A stretch of DNA of 64,000 nt from Deltaproteobacteria bacterium (GCA_029262295.1 JAJCZR010000004.1:14313-78312); one strand, 5' to 3'. Positions 20,501-40,530 are shown, counted from the stretch's first letter. Numbers and translations are program-made. Notes: generated by a model from the letters alone, not told the origin.

Positions 20501-23500
20501 AATGCATTTTCTTTATTGAGCATTGCAATATGATAATTTGTTGCTGCGTATATGAGGGGATAATTTTCAAGGTTAAATTCATCGAGTGATTCCTTATAAG
20601 TATTTATAAGGTTTTCATAAGACTCAGGTGTATTTACCTTATTATGGAAAAGCCTGTAGGCATTGGCAAGATTGATACTTGCCCTTTGTCTTACCACCTC
20701 CCCCACCTGTCCAGTATCATCCTGCGACATCTGGGCAACTGACCTCAAAATATCAATTGCCTTTTCACACTCGTCATTTTCTGCTGAGCAAGTCGAGTTA
20801 TAGATATGGGCAACACCGAGGTTGTTTTTAAGTGCTGATTCAAGATAATCAGTCCCAAAGCTGTTTAGAATTTCCTTTGAAGATTCAATATCCACGATCG
20901 CAGCATTAATATAAGAATCTTTTTCCCTGTGTGAGAAAAGAAACAGATTACAGCATGCACTATTATTTTTTATTGCAGCATAAACGCCTGGATTCCTTTC
21001 GGAATTTATTTCCTTCAAGGATAGTTCAAAATTATCAAATATAGTGGATATATCTTCATTTGAATGTGAACCATCAAATTCCGACAAAAAAAGCTTGGCA
21101 TTTGAATAGTTGTTTCTACAAATAGATAGTTCAGTGTTAGCGCCAATACTTTCAAAATATTCAATTGCACTTGAATAATCAGTGAGCGCCGGATCTAGTA
21201 AACCTTTATCATTATTGATCTCATAAAGCGTACATTTGGAATTAGAAAGATTGTTTTTTACAGTTAATAGTAGCTCAAGGTTATCTTCAGGTATCAACTC
21301 AATCGATTCATTAAAAATTTCAGACGCTTTGCTTAGATTTGCCTCAGCCTCCATAACCTCAGATAACACGCAGTAACTTGCACCAAGGTTGTTTAATACA
21401 AGGGCATGATCGATTTCATGTGACTGTGATTCAATATAGTCTGCTGAACTACTTAGTTGCCTTACAGACTCAAGGGCATTTTCTTTTTTATTTTCAATAA
21501 ATGCGAGTTTTCTATGTAAATTACCGAGATTGTTGGATATTTTTGCATATTGTATTGGATAAACATCAGATTTAAAATATCTTGAAGCATTTTTATATGC
21601 CTCAATAGCCTTATAGATATTGCTAACATTAAGACCATCTTTAAGGTCATTTGAAAACAGGCCTCCAAGTTCAATTTGAATAAGGCTGTATTCTTCAGGA
21701 AAAAACTCATGTTTAAAATAGCCCAGTGATTCAAGATTTGCTCTTATTGAAGATTGAAGCACTTCTGGATCTTTTTCATAGACATAAAGCTCTTTATAAG
21801 ATCTTGCTATTTTTCTCATGATAAAGCCATATTTACTTGGGTTACTTTCTCCCTCGAAGACTCTTTTAGATTCTTCAAATGAAGAAATGGCTTTCTTTAT
21901 CAAATCAGGGCTTCCATCAAAAAAGGCTACATCAAGATAGGAATCACCAAGGTTATTCTGGATCATTGCATAGTTGTCTGGATACTCATCAAAGGAGTAA
22001 ACCTTTAGCGATTCATTAAACGAGTTAATGGCATTTTCAAGATAGGTTTTGTTATCTGTTTCCTCTGCAAGAGAAGTGTATGCAACCCCGATATTATTTT
22101 GTGTCATTGCATAATCAATTGGGGATCTTTCATAAGTTATAAATTCTGAAGAAACTTTATAACACTCAATTGCCTTATTGCAGTTCGCTTCCTTGTTTTC
22201 AAACTCAGAGAGGGCACTATAGGCATTTCCAAGATTATTTACCGTGGAGTAATATGTTTCAGGAAAATCATCTTTATTGTATATCTCAAGGGCCTGTGTA
22301 TATGAATCAATTGCTTTTGTGCAATAATCGCTTTCAAACTCAAGCTGCGAGAGCATCTCGAAAGTGGCCCCTGCATTTCTTTTAATTTCAGCAAAATCCT
22401 CAGGTTTATGATCACTACTAAAAAACTGCAAACTTTGTTCGTATGAATCTATAGCCCTATGGCAACTTTCAACATTTCTTTCAAATTCACCTTCAAGCCT
22501 GTAAGAAGTGCCAAGGTTTCTGTTTAATGTTCCATAATATTCAGGCTGTTCTTTGGGGTCAACAAGTCTGAGTGCATCTTCATAACATTTAATCGCTTCT
22601 TTTATTCTATCTTTATGTTCATCCTCATGAGAAATTTTTAGATGAGAGTCGCCCATCTTTGTTTTAATATCAAGATACTGCTCAGTTTGCGTATCGCTAT
22701 CAATAAAATTAAGTGCTTCTTCAAGGTGTTCAGTTGCTTTTATACAGTTTTCAATTTTGTCTTCAGATTTTGATAATAGAAGATAAGCCTCACTCAGCCC
22801 TAAAAGGGCCTCAGGATATCTTTCATCATCTTTTTTATCCTCAAGCATTAAAATAACCCTTTCGTAACTTTCTACTGAGGATTTAATTATTGTATTATCT
22901 TCACTAATATCACCAGCTTTTCCCAAAGCATGGGAAAGTTTAGTCTCAATATCCAAATCATCGTATTCTATCGCAACTTCTTCAAAAGAAGCCTTTGAAG
23001 CCGAAAAGCTTTCAATTGCTTTATTGTAGATATCAAGTTCTGCGCTCTCTTTAGCTTTATTCAGATAAGAAATTCCAAGATTATAGTTGATATTTGCATT
23101 TTTGATTAGGCTTTCTTTATTGGCCGGAAGTGAAATTATCTCTTCAAAAAGTCCTATCGCTTTTTGATTTTCACCAAGCTTAATACATGAAACTGCAAGG
23201 TTGTTTTTAATATCCAGGATTAATGCCGACTCGTCCTCAGAGGAGAGAAGTTCTAAAGCTTTGATATAAAAGAAGCTTGCCTTTGTAGCAAGCGAGTTAT
23301 CTTTGTCATCTGAGAGCAAACATGCATCTGCAAGATTCTTTAAATTTTCAATACTAACTTCAATATCGCTATCAGCATTAACAATATTTTCTGTAAAGGT
23401 TTTTAAAACTTCACTAAACCGGGCCTTGTCATTTTCATCTGCATCACAAATTCTTTTGGTCAAAATTGAAATGGCAAGATAATTAATATTTAAAAGAAGG

Positions 23501-24228
23501 GCTTTATTTTCATCATCAAGATTTGAGTATTCAGCACTTGCTGCTTCAAAATCTTTTATACTCAGATTTTCATGATCTTCAGCTTTATTTAGAAACTCAG
23601 AAATTGCACTTGATTCTGATAATGATTTTATTTCGTTTCGTATTTGCTCAAGCAGTTTATTATCCAGGGAGTTGTTTTTAATTCCTGAATTTACAAGCTC
23701 AATAAACTGCTCTTTACTTTCCTCAAAATTGGAAAAATCAAGTTCTACAAGATTAAGGTTGTTATCAAGAAAATTTTCTGAAATGGATTTAATATTAGAG
23801 AAAAAAGCTTCATCATCTTTTATAAAATCTGCTTCATGCCCCGAGAGTGTTTCAGAAAGGTTAGTCAGTTTTTCAAAAAAAGCTTTGTTAGAGGAGCTTA
23901 GTAAAGCAATTGATGGAGTATTTGATTTTTGTAGTTGGCCATAAACAAGCACTGTCTTTGGGCTAAAACCATCCAGGATAAAAATATTAAGTGCCGAGCT
24001 TTTATTTATTTTAGAAATGTTATCAATATCTACATCTTTTTCGTTGATTGTATTTATTCTTATGGATTTTGAACTGAGATATGACTTAACCTTATTAATA
24101 GCTTCAGGGCTATTTAAAGTATTAAAAACAGAAGGATAGATAAGGTTACAGGGGACCGGTGTACCAAGAAATAAACTTGTTGATTGAGATTTTGTGAGAT
24201 CAATTTTATAAATTCTGTTTTTAGACAT
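14515..24228 (-). CDS. giant TPR-repeat protein (3237 aa) with an internal acidic low-complexity linker
   Basis: Single uninterrupted ORF. A TPR-like motif of 40-42 aa (..NNLGxAY..L.....KAI..Y..AL..Y....P..YA.) recurs along the length. An E/D-rich segment lies roughly at DNA 16080-16560. The C-terminal ~500 aa form a near-consensus TPR array, visible at DNA level as ~126-nt periodicity in 14515-15900. Confidence 0.85.
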   Translation of the reverse strand: MSKNRIYKIDLTKSQSTSLFLGTPVPCNLIYPSVFNTLNSPEAINKVKSYLSSKSIRINTINEKDVDIDNISKINKSSALNIFILDGFSPKTVLVYGQLQKSNTPSIALLSSSNKAFFEKLTNLSETLSGHEADFIKDDEAFFSNIKSISENFLDNNLNLVELDFSNFEESKEQFIELVNSGIKNNSLDNKLLEQIRNEIKSLSESSAISEFLNKAEDHENLSIKDFEAASAEYSNLDDENKALLLNINYLAISILTKRICDADENDKARFSEVLKTFTENIVNADSDIEVSIENLKNLADACLLSDDKDNSLATKASFFYIKALELLSSEDESALILDIKNNLAVSCIKLGENQKAIGLFEEIISLPANKESLIKNANINYNLGISYLNKAKESAELDIYNKAIESFSASKASFEEVAIEYDDLDIETKLSHALGKAGDISEDNTIIKSSVESYERVILMLEDKKDDERYPEALLGLSEAYLLLSKSEDKIENCIKATEHLEEALNFIDSDTQTEQYLDIKTKMGDSHLKISHEDEHKDRIKEAIKCYEDALRLVDPKEQPEYYGTLNRNLGTSYRLEGEFERNVESCHRAIDSYEQSLQFFSSDHKPEDFAEIKRNAGATFEMLSQLEFESDYCTKAIDSYTQALEIYNKDDFPETYYSTVNNLGNAYSALSEFENKEANCNKAIECYKVSSEFITYERSPIDYAMTQNNIGVAYTSLAEETDNKTYLENAINSFNESLKVYSFDEYPDNYAMIQNNLGDSYLDVAFFDGSPDLIKKAISSFEESKRVFEGESNPSKYGFIMRKIARSYKELYVYEKDPEVLQSSIRANLESLGYFKHEFFPEEYSLIQIELGGLFSNDLKDGLNVSNIYKAIEAYKNASRYFKSDVYPIQYAKISNNLGNLHRKLAFIENKKENALESVRQLSSSADYIESQSHEIDHALVLNNLGASYCVLSEVMEAEANLSKASEIFNESIELIPEDNLELLLTVKNNLSNSKCTLYEINNDKGLLDPALTDYSSAIEYFESIGANTELSICRNNYSNAKLFLSEFDGSHSNEDISTIFDNFELSLKEINSERNPGVYAAIKNNSACCNLFLFSHREKDSYINAAIVDIESSKEILNSFGTDYLESALKNNLGVAHIYNSTCSAENDECEKAIDILRSVAQMSQDDTGQVGEVVRQRASINLANAYRLFHNKVNTPESYENLINTYKESLDEFNLENYPLIYAATNYHIAMLNKENALINNEMVPYKECLSCLEESQLGFKGEKHIYENGVVDYEIGSMSLSLYQQEKDDNHLNKSAAHLESSLNIFDSEEFPNKNAHINLQLATAKFELGSTKNDLGLMFDSIENYENISGFFNEKDYPNENSEIRSKLKAAHELLLAENKSFDNTQDGVEYYNKLLGIFESKDTGMNTSGIEINLGELYLKSYEVNENNEFLNKANTAFKNALKSIDRQGEPEKYYSTLLSSADIDGKLGVTSKDADLLNNKISKIEEGLSFFNKEKDQNRYVALNSDIAETYATLYSITGEESKLFDSNHYFKQALNSIESGSQQYSDISKIYLANKQTLVDSFYENEDFGKVIDLIEKDIDFIDSEPNTEYSATSFITLGDSYQKLAQKEYNKDSLTRSIENYCMSLEYFSKENFSDKYFSIQKNIYQSSKLLFENEADTNYLNNSISTVDDLIHFCNDNNLLDEAKDYSAEKAGLLFINSENEFNSGNSKQAILLSQQSLQYYDAENYPDKYASIQKLMGRCYFENSDSENQIEDLHNSITCFNEAKNIFLNSDSSSSDEVGDINSYLEKVYEKLVEEDGHYDNEKKVEYLGSLISLYKENERYEALPSAYKDIAKTYFSLGETKNDIDLYKTSIINFKNYMSYLDEVNDFTELAAIQTMMGNISNEIYGLSEEKEPLSDAIEHYEKARELYMFNKEDEEVAVISSKLFDNYRLYGNIYENKEELETALFFYEKATQLIDEEKRDQLFYEQKLKNAGLFSTLADANNDYDTYTKAVECYRISFSSISENEKKADVAIKLGELFEKLYSINNDNSKPGKALEFYKNSLSYIPSGDQKLLNEVNDKIARLMHESAEADFTKSGKLSEDKYIDLLTHFTLEKEPAKYAEINLKLANHFKEKFQESANKADADNTINYSNASLLVYKKEDSPTQFENAELNIKSIYESLLENGPFSFKEREGYITKLKEIASNAGNSGEIAKYNLILAKSYLDEPTEALDKNDFDEFMSSLKQSAGFAENEDPKNAGELQYFIARLYNRISVESDNTEYASKALEYFDKFVNNSNIDAADPRLSEVKEIIDEAGLLEAKSYRENGELTLAIEKYKEVLQGFSEEKSQEKYFEINLNLADICFSLFEDKKDESLLIDSENHYRIAESYFTEKENSSIYSHINERMNEIFNLNFEFLKSKENVREKISTVDVLLAKYPEQDYPERNFQLQKLKGFSLVELYDSDSNAEDIYSAEKILNEVLQSVEKLGTKEDTAEINLNFAFINHSLFAINEERVKLDYALALYNSAMDFYENEKNGEKITEIKPKIDEVKEILASFDTVEPVDEEPVETEVLLASAEEEKVDEEKEIEVEAATHSTNPSELLEAKEDSESDDVLELVDEMIEESSSLKMSEDRQIEGEPSEILADNTLSEDEITEESLEAKVEEEQKEEFAPEQEAPEVVASEDEQKAPSMTKEYKARLENINKKDSPSEFIEVSRKLSESYVADAENGVNLLGYSEAIKNYKNAINEIDEKEQPSFYAEISRDLIGIYPENVREIDLREYKNMLTIAENALNYFNSKDFPEDHAAINKNIGIVNTSLAEREGQLKYYKDSIPFYDKALKIITKQSNPQDYAIINMNLGIAYGVISEIEFDNKAFMNSIKSYEHALESFDKEKSPGEYALVNKYLGIAYGTYGERNNDSGYLEKSVVCYEDSLNYFSIDDNTNDYGLINRNLGNNYLKLIETNNDPEFCKKGIKAYESALEYYSFSKTPFVYASIYNNIGSIYSALSDLEDKVENCEKAIDSYSKVLKVYDINDNPMEFAAANNNLGIVHRNLAEVNNKAVNSTKAISFYEKSLKAYSLKDFPIQYSNTQNNLGTAYRTLAEEENKIDNCKKAISSYKRALKVRTIENMPIQFAATQNNLGVAYRTLSEVESKSNNCKNAISSYESALIVYSFEKFPIQYATTRNNLAGAYSTLAESEDKKQNYSNSIKSYREAQKVFSQNQFPDIYNMIEENIVYLQNNVD

Positions 24229-24553
24229 CTTAATTCCCCAAAATCACTTTAGCAAAAAAACCTTTTAATTTCAAACTGTTAGAATCGAAATTTAAAGCCA
24301 TTGCTTAATTTTAAATCAACAATTGATCTTTGAAAAAATGGGTTGACCTTGCAGGGATTAAGATGATTAATCAGAACTAATGATGATTTATAAAAAGTTC
24401 TTAAAATAACCTTTCTCCTTTAAAGGTGGTTCAGCAGCCATATTAAAATCCAACTTAGGCCTGACACTTTGCGCCCTATTCTTTCAAATAGTTTGCCTTT
24501 ATCTATTAAAGGTAAACTTTATGCAACAAATCAATTATATAGCATTTTAAAAA

Positions 24554-26307: not shown

Positions 26308-26444
26308 TAAAAATTTTATATACGTTTTATATGTCATCTCAAACTAGATTTAGCATCCAGGATTTTCACCAGGATTATAAATACATCTCAGGCTTCACCA
26401 GATTGCTGCAATACTATTATTCAACTGATAGTTTTTCTTTACTT

Positions 26445-26480
26445 CTATTCTGGATACCGGATCGGGGTCCGGTATGACAA
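26445..26480 (+). repeat. TGTCAT-hairpin repeat family, copy 2
   Basis: ctattCTGGATACCGGAtcggggTCCGGTATGACAa. Same flanks as copies at 6918 and 40494; stem carries compensatory changes (GGA/TCC where copy 1 has GCA/TGC). Confidence 0.6.
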
Positions 26481-26500
26481 TGTGGTATCTTTCGTTTAAT

Positions 26501-26548
26501 CCCCCTCACCCTAACCCTCTCCCACGGAGTGGAGAGGGGATATTGAGG
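26501..26548 (+). repeat. nested hairpin CCTCA..CCCTCTCC-loop-GGAGAGGG..TGAGG (module d)
   Basis: Perfect 8-9 bp inner stem. A related copy in opposite orientation lies at 6753-6790. Confidence 0.5.
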
Positions 26549-26570
26549 TGCATCCTGCATCATGCATCCC

Positions 26571-26720
26571 TTATTTTCCCTGACACCTAATCCCTAAAAC
26601 CTAACACCTATCTTTTCCTAACCACTACCTACTATCCACTAATACCTAAAACCTAACACCTGCATCATGTATCCTGCATCTTGCCTTTTACTAACACCTA
26701 AAACCTAATCCAGTTATATT
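26571..26720 (+). repeat. G-depleted CTAA/CCTAA-rich tract bounded by ATCCTGCATC-type motifs
   Basis: About 150 nt with almost no G on the + strand. cctaaaacctaacacct occurs three times. catcctgcatcatgcatcc lies at 26549-26570 and ctgcatcatgtatcctgcatc at 26660-26690. Confidence 0.5.
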
Positions 26721-26729
26721 AAACATCTA

Positions 26730-28639: not shown

Positions 28640-29692
28640 ATGTCCACATCTCTAATAATCGGAATAGCAATAGTTCAAATTTCACTTGTTTTGTTTGTAG
28701 TGCTTACTGCAGTTGCATATCTCACTTTTGCAGAAAGGCGTATTAGTGCCTTTATACAGGACCGTTATGGCCCAAATAGAGTTGGCCCATTTGGTTTACT
28801 CCAACCCCTGGCAGACGGGATAAAGTTTATTTTCAAAGAAGATATTATTCCAAACAAGGCTAATAAAGCCATGTATATATTAGCCCCTGCTTTTGCTCTT
28901 GTTACGGCTTTGTCTGCTCTCGCAGTTGTACCGATTGGAAGAGGATTTAATACAGATCTATTTGGACTCTTAAATGAATCAATTTTCATAAAACTTCAGA
29001 TAGCTGATCTAAATATCGGAATTTTATACATAATGGCTATAAGTTCTCTTAGCGTTTACGGAATAGTATTGGGAGGATGGTCATCCAACAGCAAATACTC
29101 ACTTCTCGGAGGACTCCGTGGAGCTGCTCAAATGATAAGCTATGAACTATCGCTGGGGCTTTCACTCATTGGAGTAATAGCTATTACCGGTTCATTAAGA
29201 CTTGGTGACATTATTGAGGCCCAGGAAAGAGTTTGGTTTATGATACCTTCTTTCATTGGGTTTGTTGTATTTGTAATATCCTCATTTGCTGAAACAAACA
29301 GGCTTCCTTTTGACACTCCTGAGGCCGAACCAGAAATTGTTGCAGGTTATCACACTGAATATAGCAGTATGAAATTTGCAATGTTTTTCATGGCAGAATA
29401 CACTCACATGATACTGGCATCATGCTTGATAACCAGCTTGTTTTTGGGTGGGTGGTATCCACTACCGATTGGTGGATGGTTTGGAATTGATATAGATACT
29501 CATTGGTACTTACCACCAATGGTGTTTATCAGTAAAGTTGTATTTCTACTCTTTTTCTTCATATGGGTAAGATGGACTTTACCAAGATTCAGGTTTGATC
29601 AGGTTATGCACCTTGGCTGGAAAAAACTTTTTCCGCTTGCTATACTCAACATACTGGTTGTAAGTGTTTTAATAATTCTTGGTATTGTTTAA
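28640..29692 (+). CDS. nuoH: NADH-quinone oxidoreductase subunit H
   Basis: 350 aa with NuoH/ND1 signatures (LLQPLADGIKF, GWSSNSKYSLLGGLRGAAQMISYE, ETNRLPFD). Starts 2 nt after the nuoG-like gene. Confidence 0.9.
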   Translation: MSTSLIIGIAIVQISLVLFVVLTAVAYLTFAERRISAFIQDRYGPNRVGPFGLLQPLADGIKFIFKEDIIPNKANKAMYILAPAFALVTALSALAVVPIGRGFNTDLFGLLNESIFIKLQIADLNIGILYIMAISSLSVYGIVLGGWSSNSKYSLLGGLRGAAQMISYELSLGLSLIGVIAITGSLRLGDIIEAQERVWFMIPSFIGFVVFVISSFAETNRLPFDTPEAEPEIVAGYHTEYSSMKFAMFFMAEYTHMILASCLITSLFLGGWYPLPIGGWFGIDIDTHWYLPPMVFISKVVFLLFFFIWVRWTLPRFRFDQVMHLGWKKLFPLAILNILVVSVLIILGIV

Positions 29693-29699
29693 AAACATT

Positions 29700-29950
29700 T
29701 GTCATTCCAAACTTGATTTGGAATCCAGGTTTTAGAGAAGTTTTTCAAGCAAATATCTCCACTAACTATTTTTATTCCAAAATGGGTCAATCTCCAAATT
29801 TCTTTTCCAAGTTTTAAAAGCTTTTCTAAATAAATTATCAGCAATCTTTATGAGTAAATTATCATTTTTTACTCTCCATAATATAAATACAGGGGTGTTT
29901 CTTTTACTTTATTCCGTAATTCTGGATTCCAAATCAAGTTTGGAATGACA
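29700..29950. mobile_element. MITE-like element: two perfect 29-bp inverted copies of a hairpin repeat flanking ~190 bp of AT-rich DNA
   Basis: Left TGTCATTCCAAACTTGATTTGGAATCCAG at 29700-29728 is the exact reverse complement of 29922-29950. Each arm is itself a hairpin (ATTCCAAA/TTTGGAAT) with the same TGTCAT...CTyGA...ATCCAGG architecture as the dispersed repeat family. Starts 8 bp after the nuoH stop. Confidence 0.45.
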
Positions 29951-30038
29951 GAAAGAATAGAATATGTAACATATGTCTTCAATCTATAAAACTCCTCTGT
30001 CCAATTTCATTGGTGGAGAGGGGATTTCTTATATCATT

Positions 30039-31142
30039 ATGACAAAATACGAACTTGCTATAATCGGTGGAAGCTTTGCAGGACTTAGCTGCGCAGGAGC
30101 TGCTGCAGCAAGGGGTCTAAAAACAGTTGTATTCGATAAGAAAAAAAGACCTGGTTCATACACCCAGAGCACCGGTATATTTGTAAAAGAAATTGCTGAT
30201 CAAATAGACCTACCATCTCATCTTACAAACAAAATTCATGGTGTAAGGCTATACTCCCCTAACTTGGAGTATGTTGACCTTATCTCACCAGGATACTATT
30301 TCCTTGCAACTGACACATGCAGAGTATTGGAATGGTTTTCAAAAGAAGCAGAGAATAAAGGTACGAAGCTGGTTTACAACGAGAATATAAATAATATTGA
30401 AACCAGAGAATCAGATATCTATTTCCCAGATCAGGATATAAGCAGTAAATATCTTGTGGCAGCAGATGGTGCTAGGTCAAGAACTGCTAAAGAACTAAAC
30501 CTTGGAGTAAACAAATCCTTTCTACTTGGTGCTGAATTTGAAGTGAGTGGAATCAAAGGAATTGAGAGCGACTTTCTTCATGTTTTTTTAGACTCAAAAC
30601 TTGCGCCCGGCTATATAGGTTGGATCGTACCGGGAGTCTCACATTTTCAGATAGGTATTGCAGTTAAATATCCGAAAAAACCTAAAGTGAAAGAACTAAT
30701 TGAAAAAGTAAGTGGAATTTTTGATACAAGTGGAATGAAAATCACTGGCAGCAGAGGAGGCTTTATTCCATGTGGTGGAGTAGTCAAACCATACTACAAA
30801 GATAATGTTTGTCTTGTGGGTGATGCCGGTGGAATGGTCTCTCCTCTAACAGCAGGCGGAATTCATCCTGCAATTGAAATTGGAAGACTTTTAGGAATCG
30901 CAGTGAGTGATTACATTCAAGACGGTGGAATTAATCCGGGACTATATATCAAAAAACACCTACCCTCTTTCACTATCAAAAACCAACTCAGGAATATCTT
31001 TGATATATTAAGCCCACCAGATTTTCTTTACAACTTTTTAATTGGAAATAGTTTATTTAAAAAAAGTGCACAACTTATATTTTTTCATCACAGAGGGCTT
31101 CTTACTAAAAAAGCCTGGGAAGAAATTCTAAGAAAAAAATAA
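30039..31142 (+). CDS. FAD-dependent oxidoreductase, geranylgeranyl reductase family
   Basis: GxGxxG dinucleotide-binding motif (IIGGSFAGLSCAGAAAARG) and a GDAGG-like FAD motif (VGDAGGMVSPLTAGG). Start chosen at the ATG 30039, preceded by GGAGAGGGGA. The ORF track gives an alternative start at 29973. Confidence 0.7.
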   Translation: MTKYELAIIGGSFAGLSCAGAAAARGLKTVVFDKKKRPGSYTQSTGIFVKEIADQIDLPSHLTNKIHGVRLYSPNLEYVDLISPGYYFLATDTCRVLEWFSKEAENKGTKLVYNENINNIETRESDIYFPDQDISSKYLVAADGARSRTAKELNLGVNKSFLLGAEFEVSGIKGIESDFLHVFLDSKLAPGYIGWIVPGVSHFQIGIAVKYPKKPKVKELIEKVSGIFDTSGMKITGSRGGFIPCGGVVKPYYKDNVCLVGDAGGMVSPLTAGGIHPAIEIGRLLGIAVSDYIQDGGINPGLYIKKHLPSFTIKNQLRNIFDILSPPDFLYNFLIGNSLFKKSAQLIFFHHRGLLTKKAWEEILRKK

Positions 31143-31145
31143 GAC

Positions 31146-31529
31146 CTATAAAATATAGCTAATGATCAAACTAACTGAGGCAATAATTATTGTAGTAAAA
31201 GTAATAACCATTCCAGCAACTCTGAATTTAAGGTTTTCATTTACCTGCCTCACTCCATAGAAGTGAATAACTCTTCCAATGATAAGTGCAATTAATAATA
31301 AATGAATGACAATTTTTGAACTGATTTGTGTTTCGAGAAAAAATATCAAGATAAGTGCAATTGGAACATACTCAGCAAAATTTCCATGTACACGAATTGC
31401 CCGTTGAAGTAATTGATTATCGCCGTCTCCAATCAACACTTTGGCATTTCTTCTGATACCAATTGTTCTGAAACTCAGAAATATAAAAAACAATCCCAAA
31501 ATTGCTGCATAAATTGGTGTTATAAGCAT
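31146..31529 (-). CDS. MAPEG-family membrane protein (glutathione-S-transferase-like)
   Basis: 127 aa with 3-4 TM helices. Matches the MAPEG pattern (..RVHGNFAEYVPIALILI..). Confidence 0.65.
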   Translation of the reverse strand: MLITPIYAAILGLFFIFLSFRTIGIRRNAKVLIGDGDNQLLQRAIRVHGNFAEYVPIALILIFFLETQISSKIVIHLLLIALIIGRVIHFYGVRQVNENLKFRVAGMVITFTTIIIASVSLIISYIL

Positions 31530-31544
31530 TATTATCCTCTTTAG

Positions 31545-31955
31545 TTATTCTTCTGAAAACATAGCAAACACTTCTTCGCCCGTCATATTTTTTGTTTCAT
31601 TAGCAAAATCGTAGTAAGGTGGTTTTTCTTCAATAAATACTTGGTGATCAAATACAAAATTACTTTCATCAAATAAGGTAGGCGACATAATATATTGTCC
31701 TGTCTGTTTCAACTTATAAAAAAGATTACTTCCACATGTTTTACAAAAACCCCGCTGCGCCCAATCAGATGAATCATAAATCTCAACATTTTCTTCACCT
31801 TCAAATGAGACATCTGTGCCAGCATCAACTGCCAAAAATGGCCCACCAGACCATTTCCTACACATATTACAATGACATGCACCTAAACTATCACTTAAAC
31901 TCGGAGCTGAAACCTTGACTGCACCACATAAACAACTTCCTTTTTTATCTGACAT
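31545..31955 (-). CDS. GFA-family protein (glutathione-dependent formaldehyde-activating enzyme/CENP-V-like zinc domain)
   Basis: Cys-rich motifs CLCGAV...CHCNMCRKWSGGPF...CKTCGSNLF are typical of the GFA domain. Confidence 0.75.
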   Translation of the reverse strand: MSDKKGSCLCGAVKVSAPSLSDSLGACHCNMCRKWSGGPFLAVDAGTDVSFEGEENVEIYDSSDWAQRGFCKTCGSNLFYKLKQTGQYIMSPTLFDESNFVFDHQVFIEEKPPYYDFANETKNMTGEEVFAMFSEE

Positions 31956-31980
31956 AGCTTTTCTCCTTTTAAAAATTTAG

Positions 31981-32319
31981 TTATTCGTATAAACAGGCAT
32001 CAATAACTGCCAACACTTCATCTAAGAATTCCGAGGAAGCTCTTTCAATAAATTTAGCTTTGCGATACTTGAAATCAAGAGATTTAACTTGATCTACCAT
32101 AACAAAGCCTGAGATATTTTTTGAATCAAAGATTTTTATATGAAACGGAAATTTTCTTTCAGTATTGGTTATTGGGCAAACAATGGCAAGCCCTGTTTTT
32201 TTGTTGAATAAAGTATTGCTGACAACAATTGCAGGTCGGCGACCTTTCTGCTCATGACCTGATTGTGGATCAAAGGTTAATGCAATAAAGTCGCCTTTTT
32301 GTGGAACAAATTGAGCCAT
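31981..32319 (-). CDS. mazF: type II toxin, MazF/PemK endoribonuclease family
   Basis: GDFIALTFDPQSGHEQKGRRPAIVVS...AIVCPITN matches the PemK/MazF fold signature. Start codon abuts the antitoxin stop. Confidence 0.85.
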   Translation of the reverse strand: MAQFVPQKGDFIALTFDPQSGHEQKGRRPAIVVSNTLFNKKTGLAIVCPITNTERKFPFHIKIFDSKNISGFVMVDQVKSLDFKYRKAKFIERASSEFLDEVLAVIDACLYE

Positions 32320-32568
32320 CTACCATACTTCCTTTCCTTGAGGTTTTCCCCAGTCAACTTCTTTTGGTTCATAATCTTTTGGAATTTTAGATACAAGGTC
32401 TTTCAACTTATACTTTCCTCGAACTTTTCTAACAAGTTTTATTACTATCGAACCTTTTTCAATTGTAACATTAACTTCATCACCAACATTTATCTTTGCT
32501 TCTTCTAAAAGTTCTTTTGAGAAACGAAGACCCTGACTGTTACCCCATTTTTTAATTTTGGTTACCAT
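32320..32568 (-). CDS. mazE: type II antitoxin, MazE/AbrB (SpoVT-AbrB) family
   Basis: MVTKIKKWGNSQGLRFSKELLEEAKINVGDEV is the swapped-hairpin AbrB/MazE motif. Lies directly upstream of mazF. Confidence 0.8.
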   Translation of the reverse strand: MVTKIKKWGNSQGLRFSKELLEEAKINVGDEVNVTIEKGSIVIKLVRKVRGKYKLKDLVSKIPKDYEPKEVDWGKPQGKEVW

Positions 32569-32616
32569 ATTTAATCTCCTAACAATGTATATACAAAGTT
32601 TATACTACTACTGTTA

Positions 32617-33261
32617 TCAATTCAATCTATTAATTGGATCATCAATTGGCTTTTTAAAATCCGTTCTGTACTGATTAACTTTTATTAAACCTTCGATTAA
32701 CTTTTCAACTCTTTTAACTTCACCCTCATTCAACTCTTTGAATTCCACAATTATAGAGTTCGAGACAATAGGTTTAATCCACATTCCTTTATAAGGCTTA
32801 ACCTGATCTTTAATGTAGAGAATTGGAAACTTTTCCGATCGTGATTCAATGTGTCTTTTATAAACAATTTCAGAATGTTCCTGAATTGCAAAAATTCTCC
32901 ATTTACCTGAGTTAGGTGGCCTTGGAAGTGTTATTGATCTACCTGATTTTGAATAAGGTCTTGATATCCCTCCACCGCTAGTTTCAATCTCTCTTAGTTT
33001 ATAGAACTCACCATTCTGTTCTGCATAATATGTTACTCTTGGAAACTTCCATATAGGAATTGAGAGGTTATTTAGATTATAAAGTTTAACATTACACAAA
33101 GTCTTGTAAGAGGCACCAAACTTACCTCTTCTTGGTTCGGCCTCAAGATAAAGCCCAACACTTTCAGATGGAACTGGGAGAGCACTTACTATAACATTAT
33201 CCTTCTTTACACACCCAGAAAGAGTAATTGTTATTAAAATCAGTATTATGAGTTTTTTCAT
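32617..33261 (-). CDS. lipoprotein, function unknown
   Basis: Lipobox LSGC after the signal peptide. 4-bp ATGA overlap with the upstream methyltransferase gene. Confidence 0.5.
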   Translation of the reverse strand: MKKLIILILITITLSGCVKKDNVIVSALPVPSESVGLYLEAEPRRGKFGASYKTLCNVKLYNLNNLSIPIWKFPRVTYYAEQNGEFYKLREIETSGGGISRPYSKSGRSITLPRPPNSGKWRIFAIQEHSEIVYKRHIESRSEKFPILYIKDQVKPYKGMWIKPIVSNSIIVEFKELNEGEVKRVEKLIEGLIKVNQYRTDFKKPIDDPINRLN

Positions 33262-33893
33262 TTTTTGAATATTACAACATCTTTATCAACAAATTCTAGT
33301 TTACTATTTATATGTTCTCCAATCCATTCAAAGGTTTCCACTGAAAAAAAACTTATGTGAGTCATATCAGTTATATAGTGCCATTTTGAAAAAGCTTGCT
33401 GATCTAAAACCATCTTTGTCATTATTCCCAAAAACCCTTCAGGTTTTAAACAAACCCACAGCTTTTCCAAAACTTCAAATGGTTCTTTAAGATGTTCTAC
33501 TACTTCGCTTGCTGTTATAAAGTCATATTGTTTTTCAAAAACTGATTTATCCACCGAGTAATAAATATCATAAAGATTCATTTTATGCCCTGCTTCTTCA
33601 AACATCAAACTTAGAGTTGGACCTGGCCCTGAACCAAAATCAAGTCCAAAACTTTTGGGTTTGATTCTTGAATTCATGGGTTCAAAAATACGGCTAAGAA
33701 ATTGCCTGTAGCCAGGATCATTATGATAATTTTCGTGTAAATCGTACCTCTTTTTTTCTTCTTCTTTTGAAAGATGGAATTCTTTTGAAACAAATACTAG
33801 ATAACAATTATTACATCTTAAATATTTCCTTTGATTATCTTTATGAAAGTCAAAAATATTGTGGGACTGGCAAAGTGGGCAATAGTTACTCAT
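33258..33893 (-). CDS. class I SAM-dependent methyltransferase with N-terminal CxxC...CxxC zinc ribbon
   Basis: CPLCQS...CNNC ribbon followed by the LDFGSGPG motif I and an acidic motif II. Confidence 0.7.
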   Translation of the reverse strand: MSNYCPLCQSHNIFDFHKDNQRKYLRCNNCYLVFVSKEFHLSKEEEKKRYDLHENYHNDPGYRQFLSRIFEPMNSRIKPKSFGLDFGSGPGPTLSLMFEEAGHKMNLYDIYYSVDKSVFEKQYDFITASEVVEHLKEPFEVLEKLWVCLKPEGFLGIMTKMVLDQQAFSKWHYITDMTHISFFSVETFEWIGEHINSKLEFVDKDVVIFKK

Positions 33894-33896
33894 TTC

Positions 33897-34448
33897 TTAA
33901 ATTTTTTCCAAAATATATAAAACAAGTGTTGTATCATCAGGAGATTCAGAGAGATATTCAGTTGTAGAGAACTGTTTTTTATCTAGACCCCCAATATACT
34001 TTTTTATTTCATTGGTTTCTTCCTTTCCTTCTTTATGTCCAGGATAGCAAATAATTGTTATCAACCCACGATCGGAAAGAAGAATTATTGCAGAGTCTAA
34101 TGCAATAATTGTTGTCACAGTTTTTGTACTAATATTTTTATCTGATTTTGGAAGGTAACCAAGATTGAACATTACTACATCAGCTTTATCTTTAATATAT
34201 TCAGACATATTTTCATGTCCGTCATGGATAAATTCAACATTTTCTAAGAAACCCGTTTTATCTATTTTGTTTTTTGCAATTTCCAATGCTTCTTCTTGAA
34301 TATCAAAGCTCAAAACTTTCCCGGATTCTGAACATAGTCTGGCAAGAAAAAGTGTATCAAAACCATTACCACAAGTGGCATCAATCCCCAGATTTATTGA
34401 GTTGAATTTTTGAGAGATTATTTGATGAGCTTTATCAGTGAGAGACAA
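33897..34448 (-). CDS. YtqB-like putative RNA methyltransferase (class I SAM MTase)
   Basis: GIDATCGNGFDTLFLA motif characteristic of the rRNA_methylase/YtqB family. Confidence 0.65.
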   Translation of the reverse strand: MSLTDKAHQIISQKFNSINLGIDATCGNGFDTLFLARLCSESGKVLSFDIQEEALEIAKNKIDKTGFLENVEFIHDGHENMSEYIKDKADVVMFNLGYLPKSDKNISTKTVTTIIALDSAIILLSDRGLITIICYPGHKEGKEETNEIKKYIGGLDKKQFSTTEYLSESPDDTTLVLYILEKI

Positions 34449-34483
34449 TTATTAGTTCCAGAAATAGCTTTAATTTCTAAGGG

Positions 34484-35245
34484 TTATTCTTTATCTTTAG
34501 ATTTACCTTTTGAAACTGGCACAACTTTGGAATCTCCTGAAACTCCAAGAACTAAAGTATTTCCGGAGGATTCACCAAGAGTCTGAAGCATTCTGAGTTG
34601 CAATAAGTTCGGATTATCTTCGATCAGTTTTGCAGCATTTGTAAGATTTCTTAGAGCAGCTGTCTCACCCCTGGCTTTTTCAAGTGCAGCAAGGCCTTCT
34701 TTTTTTGCATTTACAACTTGAGCGAAAATCTCTTTAAGTTTTCCTGGGAACATTATGTCTTTAATGCTTACAGATATTAGTTTAAGTCCAATATCACTGG
34801 CTTTCGGTTCAATCATCTCAATCAGTTTTTTAGACAACTCATCACGGCTATCAAGCACAGTATCAATATCAGTGGCCCCGATTATTTCCCTTAGTGCAAG
34901 CTGAAGTTCAAGATAAAGTGTGTTGTAATAACTTTGAACTTTGTTAATCGCAGTTTCGGGATTGGTAATTTCATAATTAGCTGCCATGCTTACCCTCAAC
35001 GTGACGCCATCCGAACTTAGAACTTCCTGTCCCGTAATTGAAATAAACATGGGACGAATATCTACTTTGTGAATTATAGTATGAAACGGAATATGCCAGT
35101 ATTGACCAGGTTCCAGAACTGACTCAAACTTACCTTTGTTATATTTAAGCCCTCGTTGGTACTCAAGTATTGTTGTATATTTCACCCCGTATCTTAGAGC
35201 TAGAACAATAATTACGACAACAGTTACAGGTAAAATAAATTCCAT
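34484..35245 (-). CDS. SPFH/band-7 (stomatin/HflC-like) membrane protein
   Basis: N-terminal TM helix followed by an SPFH domain and a C-terminal coiled coil. Confidence 0.8.
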   Translation of the reverse strand: MEFILPVTVVVIIVLALRYGVKYTTILEYQRGLKYNKGKFESVLEPGQYWHIPFHTIIHKVDIRPMFISITGQEVLSSDGVTLRVSMAANYEITNPETAINKVQSYYNTLYLELQLALREIIGATDIDTVLDSRDELSKKLIEMIEPKASDIGLKLISVSIKDIMFPGKLKEIFAQVVNAKKEGLAALEKARGETAALRNLTNAAKLIEDNPNLLQLRMLQTLGESSGNTLVLGVSGDSKVVPVSKGKSKDKE

Positions 35246-35669
35246 TTTTATCTCCTTTATTAAACCCTAACCCAAGAAAACACAAGATCCTAACGGAGGT
35301 CTAAACCTGCAAAGCTAAAAGCTTGCTGCATTTCTGCTGTTCCCTCAGGATAGGGCATGTGGGATTTGAACCCGTGTGTTTCCACACAACGATGGAAGCT
35401 TTAATCGCAGGACTAATACAGCGATGCTGTTGTAGCTGCTTACATCTCCCAGAAATTTTCACGTTTTGATCAGACATTAATTGTAAATCCAGAATCTTAA
35501 TATAATGGTCTTTGAGATTATACAGGATTTTTATTTTCTCAAGTGATAATTTAAAGTAAAACATGAAAATTTCATTTTAAACTATTGTTACAATTAAATA
35601 ATTTCCAAGTCTACAATCAACTTGTTTCTTTCCATCAAAAGACTTAGGAGACAAACAGAAAAAATATTA

Positions 35670-35716
35670 ATAGATAACAAAAAAGGGCAGCCGAATAGAA
35701 ATTACTGGCTGCCCTT
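35670..35716 (-). terminator. rho-independent terminator downstream of the beta-helix paralog 1 gene
   Basis: 10-bp perfect stem AAGGGCAGCC/GGCTGCCCTT with a 14-nt loop, followed on the minus strand by TTTTTTGTT. Confidence 0.6.
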
Positions 35717-35741
35717 AAAACGATTTAAAGTAAGTTTAAAT

Positions 35742-36758
35742 TCAGGAAACTAATTTTTTTCTTCTGATCCCAAAAAATAAAACCGTTATAAGTGGGACTA
35801 TTAAAACCAGAATATTTGCAAATGCAGACCCGCTGTTAACATTCCCATTGACTAATGAACATCCGCCACCATCATCATCGTCGGCATCTACAACTGCTTC
35901 ACCATTATTATTATCAAACAGTGTAACATTAATTAGGTCAACAGGATTATCTGAATTACCTGATACTCCTGGTCCAAAACTGCCACTAACTTTTGAATTT
36001 GCAACCACACCTGATGAACTACCATCAAATGAAATCCCTATTCCAGGATTCGGAATAAAGTCATCAGATGGAAAATCACCAGTTGCAGGATTAAGCCTGT
36101 AACCAGTAGCAGTTATGTGACTATCTTTTATCGATACAACTGCATTATCCGATACTAGAATTCCAAAATTAATATTATTTTCTATACGGGAATTTGAGAT
36201 AGTAACATGCGAAGCATTACGTATATCAATCCCATTTGTCCAGTTTCTAGTAACTATATTCTTTATTATTACCCTTCTGTTTGCAGGTGCATCCACAATT
36301 ATTCCAGGGGCTCCCTGCCGGGCACCACTTCCTGCATCTCCCTGAAGCACTGCATCAATATTTGCAGTTACTCCCGGTGCTGCTTCCAATACTACATTTC
36401 CTGCTAGTGTAACAACTTCAGGAAAAGTACCAGAAGTCACTATAGTAATTCGTCCATTGTTATTAACCCCGAGCCCGCTATTTGCTCCATTTATTGTGCC
36501 AAAAACTCTATCACCGTCATTATCTTCATCATCACCAATAATAGAATCACCATCATAATCACCACAAGTTCCAATTGCCTGCGCAGAGTTTGAACCTGTA
36601 GGTGGTACGTTGCAATTGCCTTCAACCAATACTGGATGATTCGCAAACGCATCAGTCACATTGACCAGAACAATTCCAGTAAATAAAGCCAGTCCGATCA
36701 AAAAGAATAGCGTTGAATTTAAAAATTTTATTTTAGGAACTGTTTTAATGTTTTTCAT
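35742..36758 (-). CDS. secreted right-handed beta-helix (pectate-lyase/NosD-like) protein with MYXO-CTERM-like C-terminal sorting tail
   Basis: Signal peptide with cleavage ...AFA|NHPV. A Gly/Asn/Ile-rich repeat core (NNGRITIVTSGTF...NIVTRNWTNGIDIRN...) indicates a parallel beta-helix. C-terminus DDDDGGGCSLVNG...ILVLIVPLITVLFFGIRRKKLVS is a GC motif, TM helix and basic tail. Confidence 0.7.
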   Translation of the reverse strand: MKNIKTVPKIKFLNSTLFFLIGLALFTGIVLVNVTDAFANHPVLVEGNCNVPPTGSNSAQAIGTCGDYDGDSIIGDDEDNDGDRVFGTINGANSGLGVNNNGRITIVTSGTFPEVVTLAGNVVLEAAPGVTANIDAVLQGDAGSGARQGAPGIIVDAPANRRVIIKNIVTRNWTNGIDIRNASHVTISNSRIENNINFGILVSDNAVVSIKDSHITATGYRLNPATGDFPSDDFIPNPGIGISFDGSSSGVVANSKVSGSFGPGVSGNSDNPVDLINVTLFDNNNGEAVVDADDDDGGGCSLVNGNVNSGSAFANILVLIVPLITVLFFGIRRKKLVS

Positions 36759-36811
36759 TTATACGTTCTCCCAATTAGATTTAGTGTTTACATTAACCAC
36801 TACCAACAAGA

Positions 36812-37663
36812 TCAGAATGAGTCGATATCACCATCAGAATTTGGGTTATTATCAAAAAGTATAAGTGAACGTGTTAAAACAGAACCACTACCTTCGTTTG
36901 AAATACCAGTTGCAAAACTTCCTGTAATAGCAGTATTTACAACAGCCCCTGTGGAACTGTCTTCAAAAGAGATACCAATACCAGGATCTGGCGTGAAGTC
37001 ATCAGATGGAAAATCACCTGTGCCGGGATTTAATCTGTAACCAGTGGCAGTAACATGACTATCTTTTATTGTTACTACTGCACTGTCTGATACCAAGATT
37101 CCATAATTAATATTATTTTCTACACTGCAACCTGAAATTGTTACATGTGAGTCTCCACGCACATCAATTCCATTAGTCCAGTTTCTTGTAACTATATTTT
37201 TGATTGTTACCCTTCTGTTTTCAGGTGCATCCACAATTATTCCGGGGGCTCCCTGCCTGGCACCGCTTCCATCATCACCCTGCAGCACAGCATCTATACT
37301 TGCTGAAACCCCAGGTGCAGCTTCTAAAACCACATTGCCTGCAAGTGTTACAACTTCAGGAAAAGTGCCGGAAGTAACAATAGTTATACGACCATTGTTG
37401 TTAACACCATCCGAGCTGTTAGCTCCGTTGATTGTGCCGAAGACCCTGTCGCCATCTGTATCTTCAGCAGTACCGATAACTCCATCGCCGTCGTAGTCAC
37501 CGCAAGTGCCGGCTACCGGTGCAGAGTCTGAACCAGCAGGTGGTACATTACAGTTACCTTCAACCAATACTGGGTGATTGGCAAATGCATTGGAACTCCA
37601 GGATATTGCAAAAAACATTGCTACTATAAAAGCTGCAAATTTAATTTTTTTAAAAATGTGCAT
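36812..37663 (-). CDS. secreted right-handed beta-helix protein, tandem paralog (~85% identical core) lacking the C-terminal sorting tail
   Basis: Same AFA|NHPVLVEGNCNVPP N-terminus and beta-helix core as 35742..36758. Ends ...DNNPNSDGDIDSF with no TM or basic tail. Confidence 0.7.
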   Translation of the reverse strand: MHIFKKIKFAAFIVAMFFAISWSSNAFANHPVLVEGNCNVPPAGSDSAPVAGTCGDYDGDGVIGTAEDTDGDRVFGTINGANSSDGVNNNGRITIVTSGTFPEVVTLAGNVVLEAAPGVSASIDAVLQGDDGSGARQGAPGIIVDAPENRRVTIKNIVTRNWTNGIDVRGDSHVTISGCSVENNINYGILVSDSAVVTIKDSHVTATGYRLNPGTGDFPSDDFTPDPGIGISFEDSSTGAVVNTAITGSFATGISNEGSGSVLTRSLILFDNNPNSDGDIDSF

Positions 37664-37900
37664 ATTATTCCTCCTTTATTATGAAAAGTTTTTATATTTA
37701 TTTAAGATAACTAATAGTAGTTACGTAACAAATATGATTATCGGATAAATTGAAAAAAGAATATAAAAATAATGCTTGACATGTTAAGTAGGCCGCTTTA
37801 TCTTATACTTGCAACTTAAGTTAATCACTTAATTTGCAATCATCCTCCATCCTCCTTTAGATTTGCGGGAAAGTCTTAAAAAACTTTTCCGCATTTCTTT

Positions 37901-38506
37901 TTAATAGTTGGCCCTTTCTTTAAATACCCCTGCTTTAAAAAGTGAAACTAAAAGAAGAATATGTAAGACAAGAGTTATTTGAGCATAAGGTTTAATAGAG
38001 AAATCATAAATCCTTGTCCAGTCGCCAAAAGAAACTATTGAAAACATTGGATAGACAATCAAAGAATAAATAAGTTCAATTTTCACAAAACTAATTGCCA
38101 GCTCTTTAAATATAGGCTTTTTAATAAACCTTATAAAAGGTATTGGAATGAGTCCGATAACTATTGAAACAAGATTTCCACAAAATGAAATCCACCATCT
38201 TTCTGGCTGAGTAAATTCGCCACTTGGAAGTACATATCCCCAAAATATTCTCCATTGAAATTCTTCAACTTCGCCTCCAAAGTGCCAGACTGGAATTGCA
38301 TGACCAAGTTCATGAAGAAGTACACCTATAGGGATCAAAAAGAAAAAGGCAGCCTGCGTTATAAGCGCCCTATCCTGCCTTGATACATTATCATCAAGCA
38401 AAGATTCTCTACTTTTATATAGATCTATCCCGACTTTTATGCTAATAAGAACATAGAAAATGGAAATAAGATCGAATGATATGAATGAAAAGCCCATTGG
38501 TTGCAA
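37901..38506 (-). CDS. membrane-embedded putative zinc metalloprotease (HExxH; DUF3267-like)
   Basis: 201 aa with 4-5 TM helices. HELGH motif immediately after a TM helix. Confidence 0.5.
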   Translation of the reverse strand: MQPMGFSFISFDLISIFYVLISIKVGIDLYKSRESLLDDNVSRQDRALITQAAFFFLIPIGVLLHELGHAIPVWHFGGEVEEFQWRIFWGYVLPSGEFTQPERWWISFCGNLVSIVIGLIPIPFIRFIKKPIFKELAISFVKIELIYSLIVYPMFSIVSFGDWTRIYDFSIKPYAQITLVLHILLLVSLFKAGVFKERANY

Positions 38507-38609
38507 ATATTTTACTGTTAAACAGCTATATTAAAATGAAAAATTATATAATCACTAAAAATCATGGCCTTAAAGAATAAAGCTTGACTTTATAAAGCTA
38601 AGATTTATA

Positions 38610-38924
38610 TTGAATTATGTGATTAAAAGTTTCTGGGATAAAAGAACAAAAGACATTTTTGACGGGAATGAGATAAAAAATTTAAATAATAATCTGCAAA
38701 ATAAAGCGAGAAGAAAACTAATATTACTGAATAGTGCAGAAAATTTATTAGCAATCAAAGTTTTTAGAAGCAATAGACTTGAAAAGAAAGAAGGGAAAAT
38801 TCGTGGCATGAAAGGTTACCCAAACAAATGGTTTTCAATTTGGGTTGATGGGGCAAACAGAATTATTTTTACTTGGCATGAAAATAATGCACATAATGTT
38901 TTATTTCATGACTATCATAAGTAG
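38610..38924 (+). CDS. higB: type II toxin, HigB-like (RelE/ParE superfamily killer protein)
   Basis: Resembles HigB-like killer proteins (...KIRGMKGYPNKWFSIWVDGANRIIFTWHENNAHNVLFHDYH). Non-ATG start (TTG at 38610 or GTG at 38619). Toxin-first gene order is typical of higBA. Confidence 0.75.
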   Translation: MNYVIKSFWDKRTKDIFDGNEIKNLNNNLQNKARRKLILLNSAENLLAIKVFRSNRLEKKEGKIRGMKGYPNKWFSIWVDGANRIIFTWHENNAHNVLFHDYHK

Positions 38925-38935
38925 GAGGTTTAACT

Positions 38936-39277: not shown

Positions 39278-39291
39278 TTTTTATGTAAATG

Positions 39292-40399: not shown

Positions 40400-40493
40400 A
40401 TTTCACCTTCCGAGTGAGTATTTTGATTCTATTTTTTAAGCAATGTTCAGCAATTACTCATAAACAAAAAGGTAACTACTTACAGCAACATTC

Positions 40494-40530
40494 CATCATC
40501 CTGGATGCCGCATCGAGTGCGGCATGACAA
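40494..40530 (+). repeat. TGTCAT-hairpin repeat family, copy 3
   Basis: CATCATCCTGGATGCCGCAtcgagTGCGGCATGACAA. Stem ATGCCGCA/TGCGGCAT differs from copy 1 by a compensated pair (A-T to G-C). Confidence 0.6.

Follow-up and report, generated by a model that had tools for sequence, protein, structure and literature searches.

Short palindromic repeats that carry a CGTC tag were described as a superfamily of REP sequences that includes Neisseria dRS3, among the CGTC-1 repeats, as well as Rickettsia RPE-4 and RPE-6 (Di Nocera et al., BMC Genomics 2013, PMC3733652). The tag is often changed to TGTC in these repeats, and paired copies were called head-to-head when their tags face outward; dimers with DNA inserted between the partners were also described. 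The CGTC REPs had no dedicated transposase or enzyme and were not linked to RAYTs, and those close to the 3' ends of genes were thought to work at the RNA level (PMC3733652).

SsnA recognises a longer form of dRS3, the NTS (CGTCATTCCCGCGMAVGCGGGAATCYRG), as its target (Chenal et al., Nat Commun 2025, PMC11893778). This nuclease has 94 aa and a single GIY-YIG domain (cd10448), and it binds and cuts single-stranded DNA only. It nicks only the strand that bears the GTC tag, a few nucleotides 5' of that tag; cleavage needs the three bases ahead of the palindrome, and binding needs the C behind it. Across bacteria, 71% of ssn homologues have an Ssn-related motif (SRM) nearby and 42% have an SRM on both sides. 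The authors built their SRM search string by hand from 29 genomes, and they likened the NTS-ssnA-NTS arrangement to an insertion sequence (PMC11893778).

Here we compare these systems with a 251-bp element (29700-29950) located directly after nuoH in a 64,000-nt stretch of DNA from a Deltaproteobacteria bacterium (GCA_029262295.1, JAJCZR010000004.1:14313-78312), which we refer to as the window. A preliminary description had presented the element as MITE-like, with a non-coding, AT-rich interior. We find that both of its arms are CGTC/TGTC-tagged REP hairpins, which are the same thing as the NTS/SRM motifs recognised by Ssn, and that the 251 bp are probably the relic of an SRM-ssn-SRM unit in which a dead gene lies between head-to-head arms.

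Results

The element is bounded by two tagged hairpins

The element and its immediate surroundings comprise the following features:

28640-29692, + strand: nuoH, last gene of a conserved tatA-nuoG-nuoH unit (Pfam NADHdh, E 2e-125; synteny in L002, L003, L152 and L157)
29693-29699, + strand: linker AAACATT, 7 nt, from the nuoH stop codon to the left arm, kept with the arm in L152-L156
29700-29728, + strand: left arm, an SRM / CGTC-2-type REP hairpin with tag TGTC, 8-bp stem ATTCCAAA/TTTGGAAT, loop CTTGA and tail CCAG
29922-29950, - strand: right arm, a minus-strand copy of the 29-mer; the tags point outward, which makes the pair a head-to-head homodimer

The two 29-nt arms are 100% complementary (29/29) and stand 193 nt apart, and the 29-mer occurs exactly twice in the 64-kb window as against 0 times in 100 shuffles, which bears out the perfect 29-bp inverted repeat of the preliminary description. 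Its placement of the element directly after nuoH also stands, although the left arm begins 7 nt past the final base (29692) of the nuoH stop codon and not 8 bp from it. Folded alone as single-stranded DNA, each arm is predicted to form a hairpin whose stem has 8 bp and whose loop has 5 nt, and when the element folds as one strand the arms pair in a long stem (z -8.2 as RNA, -5.4 as DNA). In these predicted folds, an imperfect 15-bp inverted repeat inside the spacer (29731-29745 / 29815-29830; TTTAGAGAAGTTTTT / AAAAGCTTTTCTAAA) appeared as a second stem.

In each arm, GTC stands right before an AT-initiated palindrome and C right after it (TGTC-ATTCC...GGAAT-CCAG), as the determinants of SsnA require (PMC11893778). 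Of the features expected of a MITE, the element has the terminal inverted repeats and lacks the target-site duplication: its flanks are AAACATT and GAAAGAA, and none had been seen in the preliminary description either. At gathering thresholds, Rfam gave no match at the 251-bp element, and no tRNAs were found. Consensus scans for promoters and terminators stayed at chance level around the element, with no terminator-like site at the arms.

The hairpins belong to a family that recurs in the window and in many phyla

Seven matches to the pattern TGTCAT-stem-CTNGA-stem-ATCCAG were present in the window against 0.13 expected, and 6 of the 7 were hairpins; together with the single-arm folds, this upholds the earlier assignment of each arm to a TGTCAT...ATCCAGG family. 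The 6-7 copies in the 64 kb are all intergenic and include two head-to-head pairs, and a cluster of looser variant hairpins lies at ~3380-3530. The copies outside the element are:

6925-6953, - strand: single SRM, 62 nt downstream of an HlyD-like gene
26332-26479: second head-to-head pair, with unlike arms (26332-26360, +, degenerate; 26450-26479, -, intact) and 89 bp between them
40501-40529, - strand: single SRM, 12 nt downstream of gyrB, at the far edge of the variable nuoH-gyrB region

Stems differ among the window copies (ACCGCA, ACCGGA, TCCAAA, GCCGCA) but are still complementary, with the tag TGTC in every copy, constant flanks and a constant CTNGA loop. The two arms of the element have one stem variant in common, which no other window copy shares. 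In 4/4 SRM-bearing intergenic regions, 7-62 nt separate the 3' end of the preceding gene from the copy closest to it, and this copy reads in forward sense on the gene's coding strand. The second pair has no SRM counterpart in the corresponding intergenic region of two relatives (L152 and L002). That region, between the MFS gene and tatA (26308-26729), is 420 bp long in the window as compared to 43-180 bp, with no SRM, in relatives, and besides the SRM pair it contains short direct repeats (CCTAAAACCTAACACCT and CTGCATCATGCATCC-like) at ~26540-26720.

Outside the window, a perfect-stem version of the motif had ~27 copies in viral contigs, from many metagenomes, in which the stems vary yet stay complementary. 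Stems that vary while remaining complementary, across the window and the 27 viral-contig copies, reflect selection on structure. The exact arm, with any loop, was found in 108 stretches of the species-representative genome set, all from organisms other than the source of the window. Among the 80 of these that were listed, the arm occurred in ~30 MAGs of many phyla, including Nomurabacteria (>25 copies in one MAG), Saccharibacteria, Zixibacteria, Planctomycetota, Ignavibacteria, WOR-3, Dehalococcoidales, Babeliales and Proteobacteria. The CCA tail was present in 295/296 copies of the fetched loci, even though the search had demanded CC alone. Neighbouring repeats in these loci were arranged head-to-head in 67 cases, tail-to-tail in 26 and in tandem in 34, and the head-to-head spacers mostly measured 4-64 bp.

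Two other arrangements were noted. Tandem arrays of the 29-mer arm, repeating every 43 bp, are found in the MAG BP7.bin44 (L047 190-304, L068 254-368), with three same-strand copies placed 14 bp apart; this arrangement is unusual in the SRM/CGTC-REP family. In an IMG/VR contig classed as viral (3300037044_000272; L020/L022), SRM pairs lie between consecutive ~1.9-kb segments, with six same-strand matches.

The published SRM search string, HGTCWYN(0-2)YYVSBRHN(0-5)WNVSBRGN(0-2)RNCYNB, matched no copy in the window, while it did match the NTS consensus and one viral copy (CCCGGA/CTTGA). The window arms fall outside the string because of their stem composition (TCCAAA, ACCGCA and others, with a 5-nt CTTGA loop), even though the window hairpins have the tag, the type of loop and the tail of the string, and published SRM counts probably miss such stem variants.

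Intact SRM-ssn-SRM units occur in other genomes

Two head-to-head pairs with spacers of 322-323 bp each enclose an intact ORF of 94-95 aa (Pfam GIY-YIG, E 2e-15):

L061 5481-5857 (Nomurabacteria UBA11704), left arm +, right arm -: intact SRM-ssn-SRM unit
L111 2819-3196 (bacterium BP7.bin44), left arm +, right arm -: intact SRM-ssn-SRM unit

A profile search of all fetched loci placed Ssn genes in these two loci only, and one of the L111 arms (CGTCATTCCAAACTTGATTTGGAATCCA) is identical to the window arm save for its first base. The preliminary description had looked to a transposase with matching terminal repeats as the partner of the element; no such transposase was found among the window ORFs scanned, and it is instead the GIY-YIG protein Ssn that lies intact between arms of the same family in both units. 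Two other ssn genes, from one Deltaproteobacteria MAG (L159) and one Zixibacteria MAG (L160), have an SRM 6-8 nt upstream of their start codon. The Ssn family is very large: a threshold of E 0.001 admits 14,798 cluster representatives.

We also noted further repeat structures around ssn genes. The ssn gene of the Deltaproteobacteria MAG is situated between two direct copies of a ~200-bp block (397-600 and 905-1100), each composed of several SRMs. In Nomurabacteria UBA11704 (L061, L050, L052, L064, L071, L118), short head-to-head spacers start with GTGTC and finish with GACAC, and the same inner termini are found in the ssn-bearing unit at L061 5481-5857. Two readings would account for this: derivation of the short pairs from the gene-bearing unit, or a motif of more than 29 nt.

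The spacer contains a putative ssn remnant

A first Ssn profile, made from 107 homologues, was run on all stop-to-stop six-frame fragments of the window. The best of the 2942 fragments was 29765-29908 on the minus strand, which falls within the spacer (E 0.1). When stops were read through, minus frame 1 of the spacer scored 13.6 bits (E 0.009 at the search space of the whole window). The corresponding feature is:

29732-29893, - strand: putative ssn remnant (GIY-YIG, cd10448-type), matched by two Ssn profiles, with intact counterparts in L061 and L111

The match consists of two collinear pieces. Profile positions 5-29 align to 29819-29893 (PVFILWRVKNDNLLIKIADNLFRKA against yvyilaskrnGtlyiGvtsdlikrv), and positions 66-94 align to 29738-29824 (KAFKTWKRNLEIDPFWNKNSxWRYLLEKL against kqlkkwkrkwkleliekenpewkdlyedl). 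The match is flush with the arms, starting ~10 codons from the right arm and ending one codon short of a TAA; this terminal stop (29732-29734) sits 3 nt from the left arm, and the layout is that of the intact units.

The signal was reproducible. When the 64 kb were tiled with 193-bp windows, the 107-homologue profile gave its six highest scores among the 19,146 translations at the spacer, and 0/2000 dinucleotide shuffles of the spacer attained its score (mean 1.1, maximum 13.1). A second profile, made from 150 mutually diverse representatives, gave 13.1 bits for the same two pieces, again at first rank, and this score was likewise attained by 0/2000 shuffles (maximum 10.6). Other methods returned nothing: Pfam and NCBIfam had no matches in the three minus-strand translations of the spacer, tblastn searches of the window with two intact Ssn proteins missed the spacer, the spacer aligned at the DNA level to the two intact ssn units no better than its shuffles did (278/1000 attained the score), and a word-indexed homologue search with the remnant translation yielded no candidates. 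We set aside as probably due to chance a second Ssn-like signal at 59730-59810 on the plus strand (KEFYLYIIANNENSLKYF), which scored 7.9 bits and is intergenic, with no hairpin nearby.

The remnant has no start codon and contains one internal stop at 29762-29764. It lacks profile positions 30-65 (~36 central codons), the Glu region included, and at the positions of the catalytic tyrosines it reads P/F and L, so that the intact ORF of ~94 aa with Tyr, Tyr and Glu is absent. Pairwise alignment can put the N-terminal piece on a different part of Ssn, and therefore the identity of the deleted segment is uncertain. The simplest reading would be an in-frame loss of ~36 central codons, together with loss of the start codon, an internal stop and replacement of the tyrosines; the length of the spacer (193 bp as compared to 322 bp in intact units) fits a loss of central codons. 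From these profile matches, it is quite likely that the spacer is an ssn pseudogene on the minus strand. The interior that had been regarded as non-coding AT-rich DNA thus holds a weak yet reproducible ssn match within its 193 bp. An intact ssn is absent from the 64-kb window, as judged by tblastn and by running the Ssn profile on all six-frame fragments.

The spacer could instead be normal intergenic DNA, unrelated to ssn and unusually long, within an ordinary head-to-head REP dimer, with the Ssn signal arising by chance. We regard this as unlikely. Dimers with DNA inserted between the partners are indeed described (PMC3733652), other long-spacer pairs contain unrelated sequence (for example L111 5801-6049), and a match of ~13 bits that goes unseen by Pfam, tblastn and DNA alignment is compatible with chance. 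Against it, the spacer tops the entire window with two different profiles, and neither score was equalled in 2000 shuffles; the match lies on the expected strand, is collinear, and is placed relative to the arms as in intact units. Moreover, the two arms are a single stem variant from which all other window copies differ.

The interior of the element was found once

The 193-bp interior had no second significant match in the window, in the 150 fetched loci or, by a 20-mer scan, in the JGI metagenomes, where the spacer 20-mer had one match that was unrelated and due to chance. A metagenome scan for the junction of nuoH and the arm gave 0 matches. Pfam searches of most, not all, window ORFs of at least 110 aa identified no transposase, recombinase/invertase or RAYT (Y1_Tnp). 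The search for other copies of the interior that had been suggested in the preliminary description came back empty in the DNA covered here, and of its MITE-like label, the bounds of inverted dispersed hairpins and the likely character of a gene-less, non-autonomous derivative hold, while the implied multiple copies found no support in these searches.

An active, multi-copy MITE, whose 251-bp unit would be mobilised by a transposase acting on the 29-bp terminal inverted repeats, is on these results very unlikely. The repeats are perfect, head-to-head pairs with conserved spacers recur in other genomes (for example L048/L058/L142), and contigs from seven samples break inside the arm, implying more arm copies in those metagenomes. 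All of this would suit a MITE; the single copy of the interior in the DNA searched, the missing target-site duplication, the occurrence of arms as singletons and the lack of a transposase or recombinase in most window ORFs of at least 110 aa would not, and CGTC REPs have no associated transposase in the first place (PMC3733652).

Two further mobile or switchable arrangements were considered and rejected, given the wrong tag and the lack of any recombinase or transposase among the window ORFs scanned. REPINs are inverted REP doublets, as are the two arms here, and perfect inverted repeats around ~190 bp upstream of a gene could equally outline an invertible promoter switch (inverton). However, the window ORFs that were scanned include no invertase or RAYT gene, promoter-like sites are at chance level, and the tag is TGTC, not GTAG, in a family that is not linked to RAYTs (PMC3733652). 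Either an inverton or a RAYT-mobilised REPIN is extremely improbable.

The nuo operon also ends at nuoH in relatives that lack the element

NuoH homologues place the organism among Thermodesulfobacteriota/Dadabacteria-like MAGs. The gene order MFS-tatA-nuoG-nuoH, with nuoH last, was found in L152 (NuoH 95% identical), L002 (87%), L003 (83%, on a contig of 1.98 Mb) and L157 (82%). In L002, L003 and L157, no SRM was present in the 7-13 kb examined and no element-like DNA follows nuoH, so the operon end is ancestral and the element is not its cause. In the comparison of related loci that the preliminary description had proposed, the closer of these, L002, lacks the element. Its suggestion that the element marks an insertion or rearrangement point is borne out insofar as the element sits at the edge of a variable region, but the nuo operon was not cut there, given that relatives without the element also end at nuoH.

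In the window, ~10.5 kb (29951-40500) separate the element from gyrB, as compared to one gene in L157 and four genes in L003, and SRMs are found at both edges of this variable region. Its first gene is:

29973-31142, + strand: FAD-dependent oxidoreductase, opening the variable region; the ATG at 30039 is probably its true start

The protein collection held no member at least 90% identical to this oxidoreductase besides the genome's own. The region as a whole encodes, in addition to the FAD oxidoreductase, MAPEG, GFA and MazF proteins, methyltransferases, an SPFH protein, beta-helix proteins and an HTH protein; the one or four genes of the relatives are unrelated to these. The MazF/PemK-type toxin gene (31981-32568, -; Pfam E 7e-26) is preceded by a small ORF, a candidate for its antitoxin. 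On the other side of nuoH, a c-di-GMP-I riboswitch (24422-24507, -; Rfam, 64.7 bits) lies immediately upstream of a 3237-aa ORF (14515-24228, -), which suggests that a giant, probably surface, protein is under c-di-GMP control.

The left arm occurs at the same position in the closest relative, which is another species (L152-L156, six further samples). Window 29693-29727 and L152 7054-7088, which span the linker and 28 nt of the arm, agree at 35/35 positions, while nuoH is 82.8% identical overall and 56% identical at third codon positions; the chance of a 35/35 identity at neutral sites is ~2e-9. The element is seen in these closest relatives only up to a contig break in the left arm: the short-read contigs from seven sequencing runs (L001, which is the window's own, and L152-L156) all end at one base within it (...GGAATCCA). 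Since an assembly graph built at k=31 should be able to pass through a repeat of only 29 bp, longer shared copies must exist in those metagenomes.

Conservation of the arm across species reflects either selection, on an Ssn site or on an RNA 3'-end structure, or homogenisation among copies. In a further reading, the hairpin, or the 29-bp duplex of the two arms, would be a conserved cis-acting RNA or DNA structure for nuoGH that terminates transcription, stabilises the 3' end or is cut by RNase III, retained for such a function and not as a mobile-element relic; we judge this unlikely. The identity of linker and left arm next to nuoH third-codon positions that are only 56% identical argues for such a role, as do the long arm-arm stem (z -8.2 as RNA), the position and forward sense of the nearest repeat in 4/4 SRM-bearing intergenic regions and the proposal that REPs near 3' ends act on RNA (PMC3733652). 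Set against this are the absence of a terminator-like site at the arms, the three more distant relatives that have nothing of the kind after nuoH (L002, L003 and L157) and the presence of the same 29-mer in many unrelated phyla and contexts. A cis-acting role at nuoGH is compatible with a relic origin and would not exclude it.

Discussion

The anatomy of the arms, the pairing of such arms with intact ssn elsewhere and the profile match of the spacer together support the reading of the element as the relic of an SRM-ssn-SRM unit. The ssn gene between the arms would have died through a central deletion, loss of the start codon, an internal stop and replacement of the GIY and YIG tyrosines. With its ssn gene dead, the unit would therefore be non-autonomous. 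The intact arms may nevertheless still serve as substrates if another locus of the genome encodes an Ssn. If a working copy has been kept, then by analogy with SsnA (PMC11893778), it would nick the plus strand in the linker AAACATT after nuoH and the minus strand just beyond 29950. Each strand would thus receive a single cut at the unit's outer edge, and a target-site duplication would not be expected. Cleavage by Ssn, any present-day activity and the order of events are inferences.

Since descriptions of both the repeat family (2013) and the nuclease that goes with it (2025) have been published, the element alone matters little, and it is most likely an ordinary instance of the system described in 2025. 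As what is probably an ssn gene decaying within its own repeat pair, it supports the published idea of insertion-sequence-like NTS-ssn-NTS units (PMC11893778) as well as the idea that such units can leave gene-less repeat pairs behind. The published SRM string misses AT-rich stem variants that are widespread, including in candidate-phyla-radiation (CPR) bacteria. Furthermore, base-for-base conservation of the arm despite nearly saturated synonymous sites calls for function or concerted evolution. For annotation, "MITE-like" pairs are worth checking for ssn remnants, and the ends of adjoining operons need not be rearrangement scars.

More speculatively, head-to-head SRM/CGTC-REP dimers in general might be deletion products of SRM-ssn-SRM units, and Ssn might be, or once have been, a GIY-YIG selfish element that spawns MITE- or REPIN-like non-autonomous copies; we consider this possible but doubtful. 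If true, the identity of arms among species, and even among phyla, would be maintained by continuing Ssn-dependent copying or gene conversion, not by descent. The window element would then be an intermediate caught in the act, and the 35/35 identity of arm and linker, next to synonymous sites of nuoH that are saturated, would be a trace of homogenisation.

How does the element compare to known systems? Like MITEs that arise by internal deletion of insertion sequences, it has terminal inverted repeats, and it would have an internal gene that is lost or crippled and be non-autonomous. It differs from MITEs in having no target-site duplication and in that one copy of the unit was seen, and SRM-ssn-SRM units are without demonstrated transposition. 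REPIN/RAYT systems, built on GTAG-tagged REPs, share with SRM-ssn the inverted doublets of REP hairpins, the recognition of single-stranded DNA and an enzyme gene placed between its own repeats. They differ in the tag (GTAG, here TGTC) and in the enzyme (an HUH Y1 transposase, here GIY-YIG), and no RAYT is present in the window ORFs scanned.

Closer still are the CGTC-2 REPs (PMC3733652), which share with the arms the CGTC/TGTC tag, an 8-bp stem that begins with AT, a 5-nt loop and a CCA tail, and which are mostly head-to-head dimers close to the 3' ends of genes; head-to-head was the most frequent arrangement in the fetched loci, and in the window the copies nearest the preceding genes lie close to 3' ends. 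The spacer sets the element apart from them, at 193 bp with a putative gene remnant as compared to the 20-100 bp usual in CGTC-tagged REP dimers. In comparison to the NTS/SRM-Ssn systems (PMC11893778), the host is a Thermodesulfobacteriota/Dadabacteria-like MAG, the ssn gene appears as a decayed fragment, and stems and loop lie outside the published string. What the element shares with these systems is the hairpin of GTC, AT-palindrome and C, dispersed as intergenic repeats, and their arrangement of repeats on both sides of a single-domain GIY-YIG gene of ~95 aa, of which L111 carries intact examples.
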